DNA from: Paecilomyces variotii
Lineage: Eukaryota
Length of the DNA: 64,000 nucleotides
Direction: 5' to 3' (one strand)
Assembly (NCBI GenBank): GCA_004022145.1
Contig: RCNU01000008.1
A program made the position numbers and the translations under genes. This document shows, piece by piece, positions 18,222 through 52,500 of this stretch. Under the pieces are notes generated by a model that searched no databases, had not been told where the DNA came from, and saw only the letters and a program-made list of their open reading frames with translations. Numbering within the stretch: position 1 is the stretch's first letter; each line of letters opens with the position of its first letter.

Positions 18222-19809
18222 ATGCATCGTTCACTGCTGCGATCTACTCAGCTGCTCTACCATCTTCAATCGCCAAAGCGCCCCAGCTTTGCCACTTTTT
18301 CCGTCTCCGCACGCATCTCCGCATTCAACCCCGGCGCAAGAACTATGTCGGTACGTGCACCCCCTCCATTGCCTGTTTCCTTTGCTCCCTCTCATCCTGT
18401 TTCTTTCCATTGCTCTCCCACAATTATCGATTCTAATCTTCTCCATTCAGACGGGAAAGATCACCGATTGGGTTGATCCCAAAGACAAGTCCGGCGAGTT
18501 CAAGCGCGGAGCGTCCGTTTTCCGTAACTGGATCTCGCGAGAGCCCGGCGCAACATTCCCGCCTGAGAAGGATCGATACCATCTCTACGTCTCACATGCC
18601 TGTCCTTGGGGTATGTTTTATTGTTTTTCTGATTCAATTTTGATTGCGTTCCCATGACCCTTATCCTGGCCAAGTGACCCCAGAATTGCTGGGGAGGAAG
18701 AGAAAAGGATAGGATGTGATGAGTTTGGGTTGTGTTGTCTGTCTATGCTTATCAGAAAAAGACTGACAACGAGTCAAAAAAAAAAAACTATAGCGCATAG
18801 AACATTGATTGTCCGCAAACTCAAGGGTCTTGAGGATATCATCCCGTATACAGCCGTGCACTGGCATATGGGAGAGAAAGGTTCGTGGCATTTTCCCCTC
18901 GACTGATTATCTTATCTTTTTTTTTTTTTTTTTTTGCTCTTCTTAATAAGGAAAACTGTTCCCGTGTTGACTTTTTGGAAAGGATGGCGGTTTGCGACGC
19001 CCGATGAGAATGTCCCCGGTGACAATGTCACCCCTGACCCTATTCACCCGGAGTTTACTCATCTTCGGGATATCTATTTCTCGGTAGATCCCGAGTATAA
19101 GGGAAGATTCACCGTTCCTACTTTGTACGATAAGAAGACGAAGCGTATCGTGAGCAACGAGGTATGTATTGTTTTTCCAGCATCTATTTGAAAGACTCCA
19201 GTCAGTCCTGCAAATCTAACAATCAGATAGAGCTCCGAGATCATCCGCATGTTCTACTACGAATTCGATGACCTCCTTCCCGAAAAGTACAAGAAAGTCG
19301 ATCTCTTCCCTCCATCTCTTCGCTCCGAGATCGAAGCGACTAACGACTGGACCTACAACGACGTCAACAACGGCGTGTACAAGTCCGGCTTCGCTACCAC
19401 ACAAGAAGCCTACGAGAAGGCCGTCAAGACGCTCTTCTCATCCCTTGATCGGATTGAAGCTCATCTGGCAGAGCGTCAAGCCAAGTCTTCCTCGCCCTTC
19501 TACTTCGGCGACTCTGTCACTGAGGCTGATGTTCGTCTCTACACGACTGTTATCCGCTTTGATCCCGTGTACGTCCAGCATTTCAAGTGCAATATTCGCG
19601 ATATCAGATCCGGATACCCGGCTATTCATCGTTGGTTGAGAGCGCTGTATTGGGATATTCCGGCTTTCAAGGAGACGACCCAGTTTGAGCACATCAAGAA
19701 GCATTATACGAAGAGTCATGCACAGATTAACCAGTTTGCGATCACCCCCGTGGGACCTGTGCCGGATATTCTGCCGAAGGATCAAGAGGTCGCGGCAGTG
19801 AGGAAGTAA
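18222..19809 (+). CDS. ECM4: Omega-like glutathione transferase / glutathionyl-hydroquinone reductase (ECM4 family); 5 exons; alternative start at 18345
   Basis: Introns 18351-18450, 18611-18793, 18881-18982 and 19162-19230. Motifs RYHLYVSHACPWAHR, FTVPTLYD, IVSNESSEIIRM, NNGVYKSGFA, RFDPVYVQHFKCN. Confidence 0.92.
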
Positions 19810-20591
19810 AGGGTTCCATTGAATGTTACGACCAGCTCGAGCCATCTGATGTATAAGATATCATGAGAATAATGAATGGAATGGAATGATCAGATACAAG
19901 CAAGTATGCGCGAAGCTGGAAAAAACGAAAATAAAGAATAACGTAAATTAAGTGCACTGTATCCTCCAATATGGCGACGTGCGTTCTATCTAGGCGCCAT
20001 AAATGTCAAGGTGACCAAGCATGACGTAGGTTAAGTCGTTAAAATACAAAACGTTCATCTTTCGAAAACGGAGTATAGACCTCCTGTATATATGAAAGAT
20101 TGTGTTCCACGTAAATCAAAAATCCTCCTATATTTGAGGACACCGAGCCAAGTCACGCCATGCTATGCTGTCTATGTGCAGTTGGTGTCAAAAGATGAAA
20201 ACAAGTTTTATACATACATTTGCCTCGGCAGATGGAAGTCGTCTGATCAGATGACTCGGATATGCACGCCGCTGGATCGGAGAAAAGATGACAGAATGCC
20301 AAAAATGGACCGTGTGCAAGACCGGACAAAAAGCGAACAAGTAGACTTCTAGACAAAGTGACGCTGTCAGATGCGGTATCATCTGTAGCAAAACAGAAAA
20401 AAAATTTGCGGCGGCATAATCAGTTGCGCCTTCACCACCCCGAGGATGGTCCTGTGGGTATCTAAAGGTTTCAAAAGAAAGAAGGATAGGGCCGCTCAGA
20501 GATGAAACCGATTACATCTGAACGGACCCCTAAGCATCTAACCCGTCTGACATCCGAGACGAGCAGTGAATGAGCTCTTAAGGACAAGCCA

Positions 20592-22741
20592 TCACCTCAG
20601 ACCCAGTAATCTTTTCGCGTTTTCGTAGACGACATAGCTGATAGAGACCGCCGGAGCAACTTTCAGCAGGTTAGGTGTAATACCTCTGTAGAGACCGGGA
20701 ACTCCTTCAGCTTGGAGAGTTTTTCGTGCAACATCGAGGATGCCGTCGTAGGTTCGGGGATGAAGGACCGTTCCTTGTGCCTGTAACCGGGTTCTCAGAA
20801 CATTCAACGGGTAGACGATGGAAGCGCTCAGGGCACCACTGAAGGCACCAATAGCACCAGTGGTGAAATTGTTGAGAGGGACATCATCTTCATGGCAGCC
20901 ATGGATACGAGCCTTGCGCGCGAGGAGGCCTCTCTTCAGATATTCAAACGTGGTGAGGTCGATAGCCGCGTAGGGGAACATGCCAATAAGGCCCAGCGGC
21001 AAACCGCGAAAGAAGCCATACACGCCATACTGCTGTATGACTTTCCTGGCCGTGGCAACGATGAGTTTGTTCCCTTTCAAACCACCCTCAACCGTTTCAC
21101 ACTGCATGCGACTGGAAACAATAAGCATCTCATTCATAGAACATCGGGGTGAACCTAGATAACTTACAACTTAAGGGTGTCGATCGGGTAAGCGAAACAC
21201 CTCGTGAACGTCAGCACCAGTACCAGTTAGATTCAGGAACATAGCAACATACTGAGCGACCATTCCACCAAGGCCACCTGATAGAAACTGTGACGTTGGA
21301 AGCAGTTTCTTTGTGTCGTTATGGCCTTCTAGTCGAGCGAACGCTCGTTTTGATGCCTTTATGGTCAACAACAGGGCCAATAGACATCGAATCGATTTAC
21401 TTACCTCATAAGCACCAAACTTAATAGCAGATTCTGGCATAACCTTCACGACATTCAAGCCATTTCCTGCGTCCGTTAGTTGGTCCACTCTGAATGTCTC
21501 GGGCCTTTCTGTGGGGAAACGAACCTGCAAACAGACTCCTGATGCCACCTGCTCTCCAAAGATCTTGGATGGCAACGAGAAGTGTCCTTGAAGCCTTTCC
21601 CGCCGCTTGAAGCGGTGCCCCTTTCTTCGCCGCATGGACAGCCTCCTGCCTGACGCCGGTCTGAGCGATGAGGTAAACTTTAAGACGATCGAGAGGGGCT
21701 GTCGCTGTCCGTGAGACGACGCCAGCAATTCCGCCAGCAATGAAGTAACCTAATTGAGGCGTGTTCTCCGTCAACTTCTGTTCATAATATCGGAATGACA
21801 TCCACATGGCTACAGTCCGGGGCAAGGGCAACCATTCCAATTCGAAGTCGCCATCCAGAGATACCAGATCAGGGTTGGACTTGGATTCCAATGTGTATCG
21901 CTCGCCAAGATCCGTAGGTCGAGTGGTGCAGAATTGTGAGATCGGGGCTTGGAATACGTAGTACAGGAATTTCCTGATGGCTAGGAGGAAACGTTTAAGA
22001 AACGAGAGGTCTATACCTAAACCCTGCAGATCATTGATGTGGACGTCGCCCTCCGGGTTTAGATTTCCAATGGCCGAATAGTATGAGAGGACTGCGCGCA
22101 AGTCGGACGACGGTTTGACGGGCAAGAAGAGGAGGAAGTCCCTGGGTGTGATCAGTCGGATGATTCACTAATTGCACTTGACCAGTATGCGCATACCTCC
22201 ACTCCTCATATGTGATAACGCCATCCCTGTTGGTATCCACCTCTTGAAAAAATTCGTCGAACTTTGCGCTCGAGACGGTGACTCCAGCCTTGGAGAAGGC
22301 GGTCCTTAGTTCATCCTTGTCGATCTCACCGTTATGGTTTCTATCGATGCTCTCGAACAACCTCCATAGTTCTTTCTCAGCAAAGTCGACAAACACGCGG
22401 AATTCTGACGATGGTTAGTTGGCACGAGCAAAATCGGCATGCGGCCAGAAGGCTAAAGCGCCGATGATCGTACCAGAATATTGGATATGTCCATCGCCGC
22501 TGGTATCTACCGTCTGCAGCACACTGCGGAGCATATCATCTGCATTTTTAAGAGCTTCATCCCAGTCAGCCGACGGCAGGAGCACGTGCAGGGGTCACAG
22601 ATGGTCCTCACGGTGATCGATTTTCTTCAATCCCTTCTTGAGACCCTTGAAATCGATCTGACCTTCCCGGCGAGTGTCTAACGTCTCCCAGAGTTTGTTG
22701 ATCCTCTGATCGCGCTCGTGTTGGGACTCGCCGGGCGGCAT
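20592..22741 (-). CDS. SAL1: Calcium-binding mitochondrial ATP-Mg/Pi carrier (Sal1/SCaMC family); multi-exon
   Basis: EF-hands (DTSGDGHIQY, DRNHNGEID, DTNRDGVIT) followed by three carrier repeats (APLDRLKV, YPIDTLKF, YPLNVLRTRLQ). Introns read at 22611-22555, 22473-22405, 22196-22142, 21524-21467, 21404-21357, 21252-21201 and 21167-21112, plus an optional one at 22016-21750. Confidence 0.93.
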
Positions 22742-23374
22742 GATGAAGGCGCAGTGAAATTAATCTCAGGCGTCTTTCATTATCTTTTGGAACGGAGGCT
22801 CGATCTGTCGTAAGGAGGTATCCTGAGATCACGGGGAAGCAAGGATAGCGATAACGCGCTGCGCATCAGAACAAGCAGGTGGACACGCGGGGTAACAGTA
22901 TGCAAGACATGCAAGATGCTGCGATAATGGTGATGATGGATTGGAAGTTCCCAGAGTCTTGGTCTGGTCTTGGTCCTTACGCCATAGCCGGCCAGCCGGG
23001 CGAAAGCCGGCTAAGGTTAACTGGAAGGGCTCCAGCCCTACTATTCCTCTTTGGGCCTGACTGACTCTTTTGGCTTCATCAACCACCGGCATAGTAGTTA
23101 TATCGTTCATTTCAGCCTTTATCACCCCGTCAAGAGCAAGATGCTATGATGCAGTGGTGATGATCCCATGGTGTGTCTTGTCGAGGCTGCTCCTGGTCCT
23201 GTCGTGGCCGTTTGATGACAGACTGTCCCCTCCGTTATTCCGCATTTACATTCATCCATAACTATCAGCTTGTACGTCAGACTGGCTTTTCTCGAGTTGA
23301 TTGATTAATAGTTCCTTGATAAACTGTGTTTTGATCTTTCTAGTCCATTCATCTACTTAAGTGTCTCCTACATC

Positions 23375-24400
23375 ATGGCTGCGAATTACTGGGCATCTAC
23401 ACAGCGTCGGCATTGGCTCTTCTCGAGGGAGCGATTATCCGAGATCAGAGAGAACCTGAAAGAGAAGGATAAATTAGCACATCAGCAGTTCCCGTTGCCA
23501 GATTTGAGGCTCCTTAGCATCTACTTTAACCAACGTAAGGCCGCTATACTCACTGTACCGGTTGACCGATCCTCTCTGCTGACCCACATCTACAGAACTG
23601 ACCAAGTTGGGCAAGAGAATGACAACGAGACAGCAGGCGCTGGCGACTGCCCAAGTTTATATTAAGAGATTCTATACCAAAGTCGAGATTCGACAGACCA
23701 ACCCCTACTTGGTGCTTACGACGGCCTTCTATCTCGCCTGCAAGATGGAAGAGTGTCCTCAACACATCCGCTTCGTCGTCGGGGAGGCGCGAGGTCTCTG
23801 GCCAGGTATGCGTATTTGCTTTCCTCGTCTCTTTTCCGCGTCCACAGCTAATGCCCTACAGACTTCATCTCGTCGGACGTAGCCAAGCTGGGAGAGTGCG
23901 AGTTCTCCTTGATATCAGAAATGAGCTCACAGCTGATTGTCCACCATCCATATCGGACACTGACAGAGCTTCAGCCCGAGCTGGCGCTTACATCAGATGA
24001 GGTCGCCCTCGCTTGGTCCGTCATTAATGATCACTATCTCACAGACCTGCCGCTTCTGTATCCGCCGCACGTCATTGCTGTGATGGCGATTATCGTCGCC
24101 GTCGTCTTCAAACCAAGTCAGACCAGCTTCCACGGCACAGGACCGCCCTCGCTAGCCAGCGCCATTCGAGAAGGGGGTGCCGGTGTACTGGCAGCCTTGG
24201 GTGACAAGAACGCGCCCGGACCGCCAGCGCGAATTCAGAAAATCATCACCTTCCTTGCAGAAAGTGAAGTCGACATCAAGGCTGTCATCGAATGTACACA
24301 GGAGCTGGTCTCTCTATACGAGGTGTGGGAGCAGTACAGTGAGAAACACTGCAGAGAACTTATTGGGCGGATGGTCAAGAGCAAGAATCTGGATAAATGA
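23375..24400 (+). CDS. SSN8: Cyclin C (Mediator CDK8 module); 3 exons
   Basis: [15 protein letters not shown]-terminus, cyclin box [16 protein letters not shown]...[22 protein letters not shown]. Introns 23535-23595 and 23806-23861. Confidence 0.95.
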
Positions 24401-49585: not shown

Positions 49586-52500
49586 TTAACCCAAGCTTCC
49601 GAGCTTCTGCTGCTCGTTGGGGGTCAAGGCAGCATACAGTTCCTGGAATCCAGGCTTGGTTGACGCTTCACGGAAGAACTCCAATAGGAATGCCTGCGTC
49701 TCGTCGTCGCGCTTCCGAACTCCAAAGACACCTTCCATGCCTCCTTCGCCAAATGCCATCAACTCCTGCTTCGTGACGCCCAGACCAAGATCCAAAACAT
49801 TACCGGGGACGTCTTCCCAGTCATCACCATCATCGCTTCCCTCTTCCTCCAAAGTCGCTGCGGTGGCTGCGTCGAGCTCGCGGTTTCCAGAGGCAGAGAC
49901 AAGCTCCTCCACGAGGACCTTAATGATCTTCAGTGGTGCAGGGACGGTGGTGTAGTGGTCTGGGTTGGCGCGGGCCTGCGAGCGGGTCTTGATACGGCCA
50001 GTGTCCTGGATGATCAGGTCACCTTTGACTTGCACCTGAGCCAAACGAGGGTCTTGCAGGTTGTAGAGTTTGGAAAGGGCAAAAATGTTCTGCTTGATCT
50101 CGTCGTATCCCGCAAAGTTCACCGAGTTTTCCAGCCACTTGCTAATAACGATTGCCAAGCCGTTCTGGCCGTTGAGGTCGAGCTGAGCGAGGAAATCAAC
50201 TACCTCGCGCGGGCTTATCAGGGTCAGACGAGCGAAAACAAGAATCAAACTCTGAATGAATTGAGCCTGCTCTGCGGTAGCCAAGCGCTGGGCAACGGCA
50301 CGAAGAAGCTGCGGGAGGAAAGGTCCCAGCTTCTCCGAACCAGCGCGCTCGACGAGCTCTGCCGCAAGCTGACCAACTTCTGTGGCAGCGTTATCATCGA
50401 CAGCCGGTCCGAGCAGGCGATCAATGATCACAAGGACGACCTCGAGTGCCCCCTTGCCGGTCAATGGGTCCCTCCAGGCGATGAATTGGTCGAAATCATG
50501 GGCAAGGATGTGTCTGACGGTAAGCGTAGCAGGCCGGATGAGTTCACCGTCTGTCGACTCAAGGAGCAGCCTGGTCAACTTGGGCATGATGCTAGCCACC
50601 AGGCCAGCAGGAAGGGGAGACAAGCCATTCTCCGTCAAGGCGCGCAGGAGGTCCACCGCCAGGTTGGTCAGGGCGTTCTCTTGCGTCAAACTCCCGACAT
50701 CGATCGCTCCTGTCATGGATGGAAGGACCTTCTCACAGAGGCGGATGTATGATTCGGTGCCCTGTTCGGCGATCCTCTCAACAATATCCTCAAAGGCCTC
50801 GGTAACAATCATCACCAGATGGAAGTTGCTTGCGCCATTGCTGGCAACGTTGAAGAGCACATCGAGAGCCGTCGAATTGATCACCACGCTGGGATCGACC
50901 ATGATGGTATCGCGTAACGTTTCAGCCAAAGTGACCTTGAGGTCATCGTTATCGGTTGACTCTCGAAGATCGTGCTGAGAGATAAACTGAGAGATGGCCG
51001 TAATGACGGGCACCTGCAGGGCCTGGGTGGTCGCGGGAGGAAGAGAAGTCAGGAGATCCTGGAGAACACGAATGCAAGAGACCTGGACGACCTCAGAGGG
51101 GTCTTCTGTGATGGCCTTCAGGGAGGCCTCAAGATAAGAAGCCGCCGCCTGCTGCTGGAACCCGTCAGGCGCAGTCTTGGAGAGAATTCCTGCCACCAGG
51201 TATCCCCGAGCGCGCAGAAGCTCCTGCTCCTGCTGAATAGCGAAGTTGATGAAATCCGTGAATCTATTAGCCAACTCCAGTGGAATCTGCTGGTCCACCT
51301 CGCTAAAGTCACGCAGCAATTGATTGACAATAAACAGCGCGGCCTCACGAGCCTTCCATCTGCAACACAGTCAGTATTCTGTCATTTGCGGAACAGGCGA
51401 GGGGAAGTGCATACGTAGAAGATGCATCCGCGAACAGCGCGCTGGTGTAGGCAAGAAGACCCTCCACGGTCATCGTCTTTAACCATTCACCCAGCTTGAT
51501 CACTAGATCACCGCCGCACGTGCGAGGGGTGATATTAGCCGTAACGGAGGTCTCCTCGGACAGAAACAGGTTGACGTCGATGTCCCATAAGCCTTCCTCC
51601 TCCGTGGTGATCTGAGCATAAGCCACAACCAACTTCATCACTTCAGGGAGCCAGCTCGAAGTCGTGGCCGCCTGTCCAGCATTCTGTAGCTGCGTCTGCA
51701 GCTCCGCCTTGACTGGAGGAGCCTTCAATAACGCCTGCATCAGATCCAGCTCTTCTATAACGAGGAAGTCCAGTGTGTAGGGGAGGGCATCTGTATCCTC
51801 CAGACGACCCTGTCGCTCATCCGTGATGTAGAAGTCATGGTAGGGGCCCTGAATGTTGGAGAGCTCGGTCCAGATCGTCGAGAAGTAGGCGGGAGTTTGA
51901 GGAGCTAGGAGGCCGGGAAAGATCATGCGGATCTTCATGAGAGTCTATAATAATAGATATCCCGGTCAGTCGGAACCGTGAGCACAGATCACAGGCAGAT
52001 CTACTATACCTTCACCACCTGCAGTTTCAGGGCAATCGATCCTCTCCACTGAGATGCGATCTCCGTCTCCTTCGACTCCTCGTCTTCCGACGGTGGCTGC
52101 GGCAGCGGGGCCTTCATGACGGTCAGGAAGAAGGGCGACCATCCTCCCAACGCTTCGTCCATGAACTGTTTGACCACTGTCTTGTGCTGCTCCAGCACCA
52201 TCTCCAACGTATCGAAGCACGAGCGGAACACGGACACGGCCAGTGCCCGCAAGATGGGCTTTCTGGACTCATTGGTCGCGACGGCAAACAACGATGACAC
52301 CAAGTCGCGGGCCACGTTGAAGAACTGCTCCTCGCTGAATCCAGTATCCACCAGGTCGAGCAAGACCTTCAGCGCACCGTGCAGCGCGCCATCCGTGCTG
52401 CTGGGATTATTGATAATGTGCAGCACCGTGGGTAGCAGCTCGGGCCACTGTTCAGGGAAATCGGCACTGGCGACCTTACTGACAGCATAACTGGCAGCGG

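Follow-up and report, generated by a model that had tools for sequence, protein, structure and literature searches.

Evidence for an evolutionarily old exitron in a Sal1-type mitochondrial carrier gene of Paecilomyces variotii

Can one internal stretch of a fungal coding exon serve both as coding sequence and as an intron? The question is raised by a Sal1/SCaMC-type carrier gene on the minus strand of a 64,000-nucleotide (nt) stretch of Paecilomyces variotii DNA (assembly GCA_004022145.1, contig RCNU01000008.1), hereafter called the window. The gene encodes EF-hand motifs followed by mitochondrial carrier repeats. An earlier inspection of the letters alone (the sequence-only reading) had proposed that 267 nt between these two parts, at 21750..22016, form an exitron-like segment that can be either spliced out or retained in frame. 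Public RNA assemblies and a comparison across species lead us to regard this segment as a genuine, evolutionarily old exitron that gives two in-frame mRNAs, with selection acting on both its splicing and its retained frame. We put the probability of this reading at roughly 85%.

The coding sequence (CDS) is that of a Ca2+-regulated mitochondrial ATP-Mg/Pi carrier, with an EF-hand part and three Mito_carr matches. It occupies 20592..22741 on the minus strand, from the ATG at 22741 to the stop at 20592, and encodes 584 amino acids (aa) when the segment is retained and 495 aa when it is spliced. Among public proteins, the closest is one of 584 aa from Paecilomyces variotii, annotated as hypothetical, with 99% identity over the queried exon. 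The segment lies inside a 617-nt coding exon (21525..22141, minus strand), whose borders are set by the RNA joints of the introns at 22196..22142 and 21524..21467.

Re-examination of the letters found the segment exactly as it had been described, namely 267 nt, phase 1, GT..AG and stop-free over 89 codons at 22016..21750 on the minus strand. At the donor, GGT TTA G|GTATAG, the first intron base is 22016; this 5' splice site (GTATAG, 22011..22016) is weak, with no G at +5, and its GT forms the second and third bases of a Gly codon. The branch-like TTGAC (21774..21770) starts 25 nt before the intron end. At the acceptor, CAATTAG|GTTAC, the last intron base is 21750, and the A of its AG (21750..21751) ends a Leu codon while the G begins a Gly codon. 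Splicing produces DLQGLG-YFIAGG, and retention inserts 89 residues running from IDLSF to TPQLG. The 6-nt direct repeat TTAGGT is indeed present at both junctions, and the segment is 4-5 times longer than the other introns of the gene (267 nt vs 48-69 nt).

Judged by motif, with no quantitative score, the splice sites of the exitron appear weaker than those of its neighbours. Its donor GTATAG compares with GTGAGG, GTACGA, GTATGC, GTTCGT, GTAAGT, GTATGT and GTAAGT in the introns. The YTRAY branch motif starts at -25 in the exitron vs -12 to -15 in introns 1 to 6, the sixth of which carries another YTRAY at -30; no such motif was found in intron 7. The G+C fraction is 0.483 in the segment vs 0.561 in the rest of the exon. 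By its sequence alone the segment is no more than chance would give: 124 in-frame GT..AG pairs of 45-400 nt occur in its 617-nt exon, though only 3 of them carry YTRAY 10-42 nt before the AG. What identifies the segment as real is the RNA contigs and the conservation of its signals across species.

Four public runs were mapped onto positions 20500-22900, all of them as assembled contigs and not as reads. In three runs from three studies (X3, X4 and X10) contigs join across all seven short introns, and these assemblies are therefore derived from RNA. Each of the three contains a joint that skips exactly the 267 nt from 21750 to 22016 (CT..AC on the plus strand), on unitigs with depths of 369.2, 13.6 and 66.7, respectively. 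Each also has a contig of 321 nt (21724-22044) in which the segment is still present; its depths are 389.2, 9.93 and 19.7. As a two-path bubble predicts, the long contigs on either side stop at 21753 and 22015. Both forms that the sequence-only reading had anticipated are thus present in all three studies. Expressed roughly, the retained share is about 51%, 42% and 23%, and the spliced joint makes up 50-77% of local depth. Contaminating genomic DNA is not the cause of the retained contig because the other introns have zero depth; in X3, for example, the bin 21148-21228 has a depth of 414, which is 31/81 of the exon depth of 1081.8.

Protein predictions agree with both mRNAs. When the spliced CDS was built from the window with all eight RNA joints, its translation was identical at 495/495 positions to P0094, a protein predicted from a 2294-nt public run-assembly contig. 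The retained CDS matched the annotated protein P0002 at 581/584 positions.

The age of the event was approached by scanning metagenome contigs with an alignment of the exon and taking the best 80 of 211 confirmed matches, which have 40-80% identity to the window exon. In 78/80 loci a single tblastn match in one frame extends from query residue 1, 2 or 3 to residue 205; the match in L042 ends at residue 181, and L055 is cut at a contig end. Reduction at ≤95% aa identity left 56 lineages, the window included. Of the 80 loci, 79 could be aligned; every one of them reads G|GTA where the donor falls and AG|G where the acceptor falls, and has a length divisible by three (198-342 nt), and 74/79 are stop-free. 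The donor, branch motif and acceptor recur in 53-56 of the 56 lineages, so that the predicted conservation of splice signals, length and open frame holds well beyond the window.

The codons at these sites are constrained in a manner that suits splicing. The donor Gly codon is GGT in 56/56 lineages; as a control, nine other conserved Gly columns have T at the third position in only 5-23 of 53-56 sequences. The codon that follows begins with A in 56/56 lineages while encoding 7 different residues. At the other end, the codon before the acceptor ends with A in 56/56 although its residue varies (L, P, V, T or I), and the mean third-position A over all columns is 0.21. The codon before the donor ends with A in 75% of lineages. 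In 53/56 the first base of YTRAY is exactly at -25, the motif being spelled by Leu-Thr or Leu-Ile codons; the exceptions are L061 (at -20), L076 (at -22) and L077 (none). Donors are weak throughout the lineages (GTACGA, GTACTN and GTATAG are examples). In-frame stops, 1-3 in each locus, were found in L026, L033, L042, L054 and L061, which represent four lineages (L026 and L033 fall together). Every lineage, including those with a decayed frame, has kept the signals, a clear sign that selection preserves the capacity for splicing.

The retained reading frame has its own signature. It is stop-free over 66-111 codons in 52/56 lineages. Nonsynonymous to synonymous divergence (dN/dS) was estimated by the Nei-Gojobori method for 17 close pairs, the synonymous term of the segment being computable in 15. 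In these 15 pairs the segment dN/dS ranges from 0.16 to 0.74, mostly 0.2-0.5, and is below 1 in every one, with flank values of 0.02-0.29. Synonymous divergence is often lower in the segment than in the flanks, as expected from an added constraint by RNA signals. The start of the insert has the motif F-L-x3-4-[LF]-F-G-x-I..[IL][AV]..P-P, with column conservation of 91% for F, 79% for L and 77% for G. All four Gly codons occur at the motif glycine (Gly54), a point in favour of selection on the insert peptide. These patterns point to purifying selection on the retained frame in most lineages. Since both the splicing and the coding capacity are selected, the segment is best regarded as a real and ancient exitron.

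A different codon pattern is seen at the Phe-Leu pair near the insert start. Phe is encoded by TTT in 42 cases vs TTC in 9, and 40/44 Leu codons are CTT; Phe133 in the flank prefers TTC (41 vs 14). The resulting TTTCTT, which also encodes part of the conserved peptide motif, lies at 21997..22002 in the window, 15-20 nt into the exitron and downstream of the weak donor, where it may act as a U-rich splicing element.

Gene models from related fungi were classified in two sets, the best 120 relatives of the exon and 120 relatives of a distant locus whose best named matches are Plenodomus/Pleosporales. Among the 110 classified exon relatives, 97 keep the whole segment, 5 lack exactly the segment and 8 lack part of it; the corresponding numbers for the 101 classified in the distant-locus set are 94, 6 and 1. 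The five short models of the first set, all 495-496 aa, are P0094 and those of Thermoascus thermophilus, Aspergillus brasiliensis, A. glaucus and Penicillium brasilianum. Two of the six short forms in the second set (P0171 and P0197) come from run assemblies, which also yield long forms in that set (P0122 and P0135). Disagreement among public gene models, about 585 aa vs 495 aa, is thus accounted for by the exitron.

P0197 is a 495-aa protein from a 2083-nt assembly contig. At 75/75 positions it agrees with the flank that follows the segment in metagenome locus L019, but the segment itself is missing from the homologous site. Since P0197 matches L019, a second and distant lineage (44% identity to the window exon) shows the spliced product. 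The junction repeat of L019 is just AG|G (3 nt), and the 6-nt repeat is therefore not needed for a spliced product.

Partial removal of the segment was seen in the models P0069, P0075, P0089, P0098, P0100, P0101, P0103-P0105, P0112 and P0119, examples coming from Aspergillus niger, A. tanneri, Coccidioides, Paracoccidioides, Blastomyces and Trichophyton. Several of these models exit the exon at the same donor (LQGL|). They may represent alternative acceptors or errors of gene modelling; no joint of the partial type was seen in the RNA contigs of the window.

Where the insert falls in the protein can be judged from the family to which the carrier is assigned. EF-hand Pfam families occur at the N-terminus, which matches the sequences of the solved structures 4n5x and 4zcu with E-values of 6e-19 and 8e-19. 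In an AlphaFold2 model of the long isoform (109 aligned sequences; mean predicted local distance difference test, pLDDT, 69.6) this domain superimposes on the regulatory domain of human SCaMC-1 (4n5x, 4zcu and 4zcv) with template modelling (TM) scores of 0.78-0.81 and root-mean-square deviations of 2.4-2.8. The N-terminal domain is thus calmodulin-like, with four EF-hands predicted to bind Ca2+. The C-terminal carrier domain has PF00153 in 3 stretches (E-value 5e-68), and its model resembles ADP/ATP carrier and UCP1 structures (Foldseek; TM 0.61-0.75). The predicted transport function of the gene product is that of a mitochondrial ATP-Mg/Pi carrier of the APC/SCaMC/Sal1 type (SLC25A23-25).

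In human APC1, as described in the available parts of two reports (PMC6283063, PMC5369052), an amphipathic "locking pin" helix (I159, I162, I163, F165, W166) follows EF-hand 4 and binds a pocket of EF-hands 3/4 when Ca2+ is present and the carrier when it is absent. According to the same sources, the pin helix and a linker loop span residues 155-191, the loop being compact and stabilizing the carrier (PMC6283063, PMC5369052). The AlphaFold2 model places a helix at residues 154-163 directly after EF-hand 4 (pLDDT about 57-64). This amphipathic stretch, DLRAVLSYY, is encoded at 22072..22101 on the minus strand. By position and pattern it is the putative counterpart of the human pin, and both isoforms contain it. 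The insert (residues 183-271) was modelled as a helix at 186-202 (pLDDT about 40; region 21955..22005, minus strand, where column conservation is also found), an unstructured part (about 27) and a helix at 248-266 (about 50) that leads into transmembrane helix 1. The segment therefore sits after the pin-like helix and directly before transmembrane helix 1. As to position, this agrees with the proposal that what distinguishes the two isoforms is the linker joining Ca2+ sensor and carrier. On this comparison, the exitron would alter only the tether between the pin and helix 1.

The sequence-only reading had also pointed to an amphipathic or hydrophobic helix at the insert start. A hydrophobic and conserved helix is predicted there, but the amphipathic regulatory helix of the family lies upstream, at 154-163, and is kept in both isoforms. 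We accordingly rejected a regulatory amphipathic helix inside the segment, given that the human residue numbers place that helix upstream. A search of solved structures with the exon sequence matched the carrier part only and left the insert unmatched, and a full-length search, in which human SCaMC-1 aligned up to residue about 158, gave no solved relative of the insert.

Spacing between EF-hand 4 and the carrier part offers a view of the outgroups. In budding yeasts it is 45-48 residues in 84/86 classified proteins vs 44-45 in the spliced isoform. These proteins came from a named search with one representative and include Debaryomyces, Scheffersomyces, Candida, Ogataea, Komagataella and others, several of them named Sal1 by their source. 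Among the best 150 representatives of a 50%-identity library, the distance from EF-hand 4 to the first carrier signature is most commonly 60-79 residues (51/80 classified), a measure on which the spliced form has 62; this comparison is qualitative, as 72/152 proteins were unclassified and some anchors fell on earlier EF-hands. Because yeasts and most eukaryote representatives share the short spacing, the spliced product has the build that is general in the family. Within the proteins examined, the insert is a feature of filamentous ascomycetes; we take the named matches that carry it to belong to Eurotiales, Onygenales, many Dothideomycetes, the lichen-forming Lecanoromycetes and some Leotiomycetes. 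The fungal loop is about 10 residues shorter than the human one when spliced, or 89 longer.

Long, low-complexity inserts at the same place of the linker were observed in some more distant relatives of the carrier (P0255, P0258 and P0263), with 126-259 residues from EF-hand 4 to the first carrier signature. Other groups of fungi may thus also tend to gain insertions, or to retain introns, at this spot of the linker.

How, then, would two carriers arise from one gene? The segment is removed from only part of the transcripts, probably owing to its weak GTATAG donor, to the unusual distance of TTGAC from the AG (25 nt) and to a length that exceeds the other introns 4-5 times. The spliced mRNA encodes the 495-aa carrier with a short linker, co-linear with budding-yeast Sal1, and the unspliced mRNA the 584-aa carrier with 89 extra linker residues. 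The insert begins with a short hydrophobic helix that is conserved and continues with a variable middle, probably disordered. Its C-terminal part is again conserved, and the codons there double as branch point, pyrimidine stretch and acceptor. The most economical assumption is that both proteins are made and used. They may differ in Ca2+ gating, in stability or in membrane placement, a hypothesis we base on the linker loop being the tether between the locking pin and the carrier domain. The splicing ratio may also be regulated.

A more elaborate version is tempting, and we hold it tentatively, at somewhat under even odds. The dual-coding exitron would have been kept since before the ascomycete classes seen here diverged, and regulated splicing would switch between a short-linker carrier like that of yeasts and animals and a long-linker carrier seen to date in filamentous ascomycetes only, and would thereby tune the loading of mitochondria with adenine nucleotides. 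In such a switch, the codons of the insert would at the same time carry the donor, the branch point, the acceptor and possibly a U-rich enhancer, and the hydrophobic helix of the long form would alter gating by the locking pin or the position of the sensor at the membrane.

Several observations count against an exitron with two selected products. The four stop-bearing lineages (4/56) keep GT, the branch-like motif and AG. Stops accompanied by intact splice signals mean that the long form is dispensable in those lineages, where the segment may now be an obligatory intron. Part of the apparent peptide conservation may reside at the RNA level, given the TTT/CTT bias, and AlphaFold2 confidence is low across the whole insert (pLDDT 27-50). 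The metagenome query contained the segment and only the best 80 of 211 matches were used, so that lineages without a segment are under-sampled. On the RNA side, the shorter side of the junction unitigs has 24 unambiguous letters (plus 6 shared), fewer than the 31 of a bridging record, and full-length support for the spliced form comes from the predicted protein P0094. The data are assembled contigs, which makes the depths rough, drops rare forms and does not give true levels; the fourth run, X1, is uninformative, as it gave nothing but an unspliced contig of 4609 nt with 9 differences. Finally, both isoforms are known here as mRNA and predicted proteins, from which we infer that both proteins are made.

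The main rival sees in the segment a normal intron with inefficient splicing. In that case the sole functional product would be the short protein, and an open frame of 3n length would merely avoid truncation, the long protein being tolerated. This would fit signals kept in 56 lineages with a frame that is stopped in 4, the co-linearity of the short form with yeast Sal1, and an insert middle that is poorly conserved and predicted to be disordered. The low synonymous divergence of the segment and the TTTCTT bias, both explicable by RNA-level constraint, fit as well. We nevertheless consider it unlikely. A merely tolerated insert is not expected to stay stop-free over 66-111 codons in 52 of 56 lineages with dN/dS mostly of 0.2-0.5, nor to conserve the F-G core of its helix with free synonymous codon use. 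The retained form makes up about 23-51% of local depth while the seven other introns are fully removed, and the whole segment is treated as coding by 97/110 and 94/101 classified models.

Much less probable is that this is a plain coding exon in which reverse-transcriptase template switching or mis-assembly at TTAGGT has created the junction. The repeat is common to both junctions, the junction unitigs are short (24 on one side), and 124 in-frame GT..AG pairs are available in the exon. Yet a 6-nt repeat cannot join 31-mer unitigs, and the same joint was recovered in three studies at 50-77% of local depth. Template-switching artefacts are expected far below such a fraction. An artefact would also leave no conservation of GT, branch motif and AG at synonymous sites in 56 lineages, and the L019 lineage has a spliced product, P0197, with a repeat of only 3 nt. 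Least probable of all is that only the long protein functions, the short mRNA being a by-product of noisy splicing at cryptic sites. In favour of this, the segment is kept by most gene models, and the retained form is a major form in pure-culture-like runs. But noise would not keep GGT-A, YTRAY at -25 and A-G in 53-56 of 56 lineages, four of which keep the signals after loss of the frame, and the spliced product has the architecture of yeast Sal1 and of most other eukaryote representatives of the family.

Taken as an exitron, the segment can be compared with known systems. Exitrons were described in Arabidopsis and human as internal parts of coding exons with canonical GT..AG borders and weaker splice sites (Marquez et al., 2015; PMC4484396). 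To judge from the available parts of that report, the segment falls within the definition and shares the typical features: it lies inside a long annotated coding exon, both its spliced and its unspliced transcript are present, its GT..AG borders are canonical but weaker than the splice sites of neighbouring introns, its length is 3n without a stop, its GC content is below that of the remaining exon, retention gives a major isoform, and the peptide is largely predicted to be disordered (PMC4484396). Exon-like traits of exitrons also include a GC content intermediate between intron and exon and mostly synonymous change, and the segment agrees with the latter in that dN/dS is below 1 in all 15 computable pairs. 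It differs in that it occurs in a filamentous fungus, is held across whole fungal classes, and has its donor, branch point and acceptor within conserved codons. A coding-exon origin was given for a tested subset of exitrons in the same available parts (PMC4484396). An origin from an intron is possible for the present segment, given the spliced-type outgroups, and would differ from those cases.

The carrier itself resembles human APC1/SCaMC-1 (SLC25A24) in its order of parts: four EF-hands, then a predicted helix as the putative amphipathic pin, then a linker loop, and finally the three repeats of the carrier domain. The human loop is compact and is not reported to be alternatively spliced in the available text of PMC5369052 and PMC6283063. 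Budding-yeast Sal1 belongs to the same family and its spacing of 45-48 equals that of the spliced isoform, but in yeast the gene itself lacks the insert, so that the short form is the only one. The usual retention of introns in fungi is similar insofar as a fraction of transcripts keeps an intron with weak signals. Such retention usually brings a stop or a frameshift, and fungal retained introns are usually viewed as noise or as a route to mRNA decay. Here, in contrast, the retained frame is open, has 3n length and is under purifying selection in 52/56 lineages.

Our literature search at abstract level, on exitrons in fungi and on alternative splicing of Sal1/ATP-Mg carriers, returned no fungal exitron and no account of this splicing event. 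The locus is a new, deeply conserved fungal case of a kind of event known from plants and animals. To our knowledge, alternative splicing that gives two conserved in-frame isoforms has seldom been documented in fungi. The present case joins RNA support, a signature of selection on both signals and frame, and a defined place in a mechanistically understood protein. It bears on how linker length affects the Ca2+ gating of ATP-Mg/Pi carriers and, more generally, on how codons and splice signals can share the same bases.

The remaining introns of the gene, all on the minus strand, are constitutive and supported by RNA joints. Intron 1 (22555..22611, 57 nt) is joined in X3, X4 and X10, and no contig retains it. 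Introns 2 and 3 lie upstream of the exitron at 22405..22473 (69 nt) and 22142..22196 (55 nt), and introns 4 to 7 downstream at 21467..21524 (58 nt), 21357..21404 (48 nt), 21201..21252 (52 nt) and 21112..21167 (56 nt).

Upstream of the carrier gene, open frames at 23312-24400 on the plus strand look cyclin-like by eye; a Pfam scan of one piece of them gave no match. For the carrier orthologue P0237 the source gives the name RNA polymerase II cyclin-like subunit, a label that may have been transferred in error from a neighbouring gene. Downstream of the carrier gene and on the opposite strand, an open frame at 19231-19809 (plus) matches glutathione S-transferase C-terminal domains (GST_C_2, E-value 1.4e-19). 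A neighbouring importin-like gene, KAP114 in the sequence-only reading, has a plausible short intron at 51945-52011 on the minus strand, with the unusual donor GTATAG of the exitron at 52009, a CTGAC branch motif and a TATAG acceptor.

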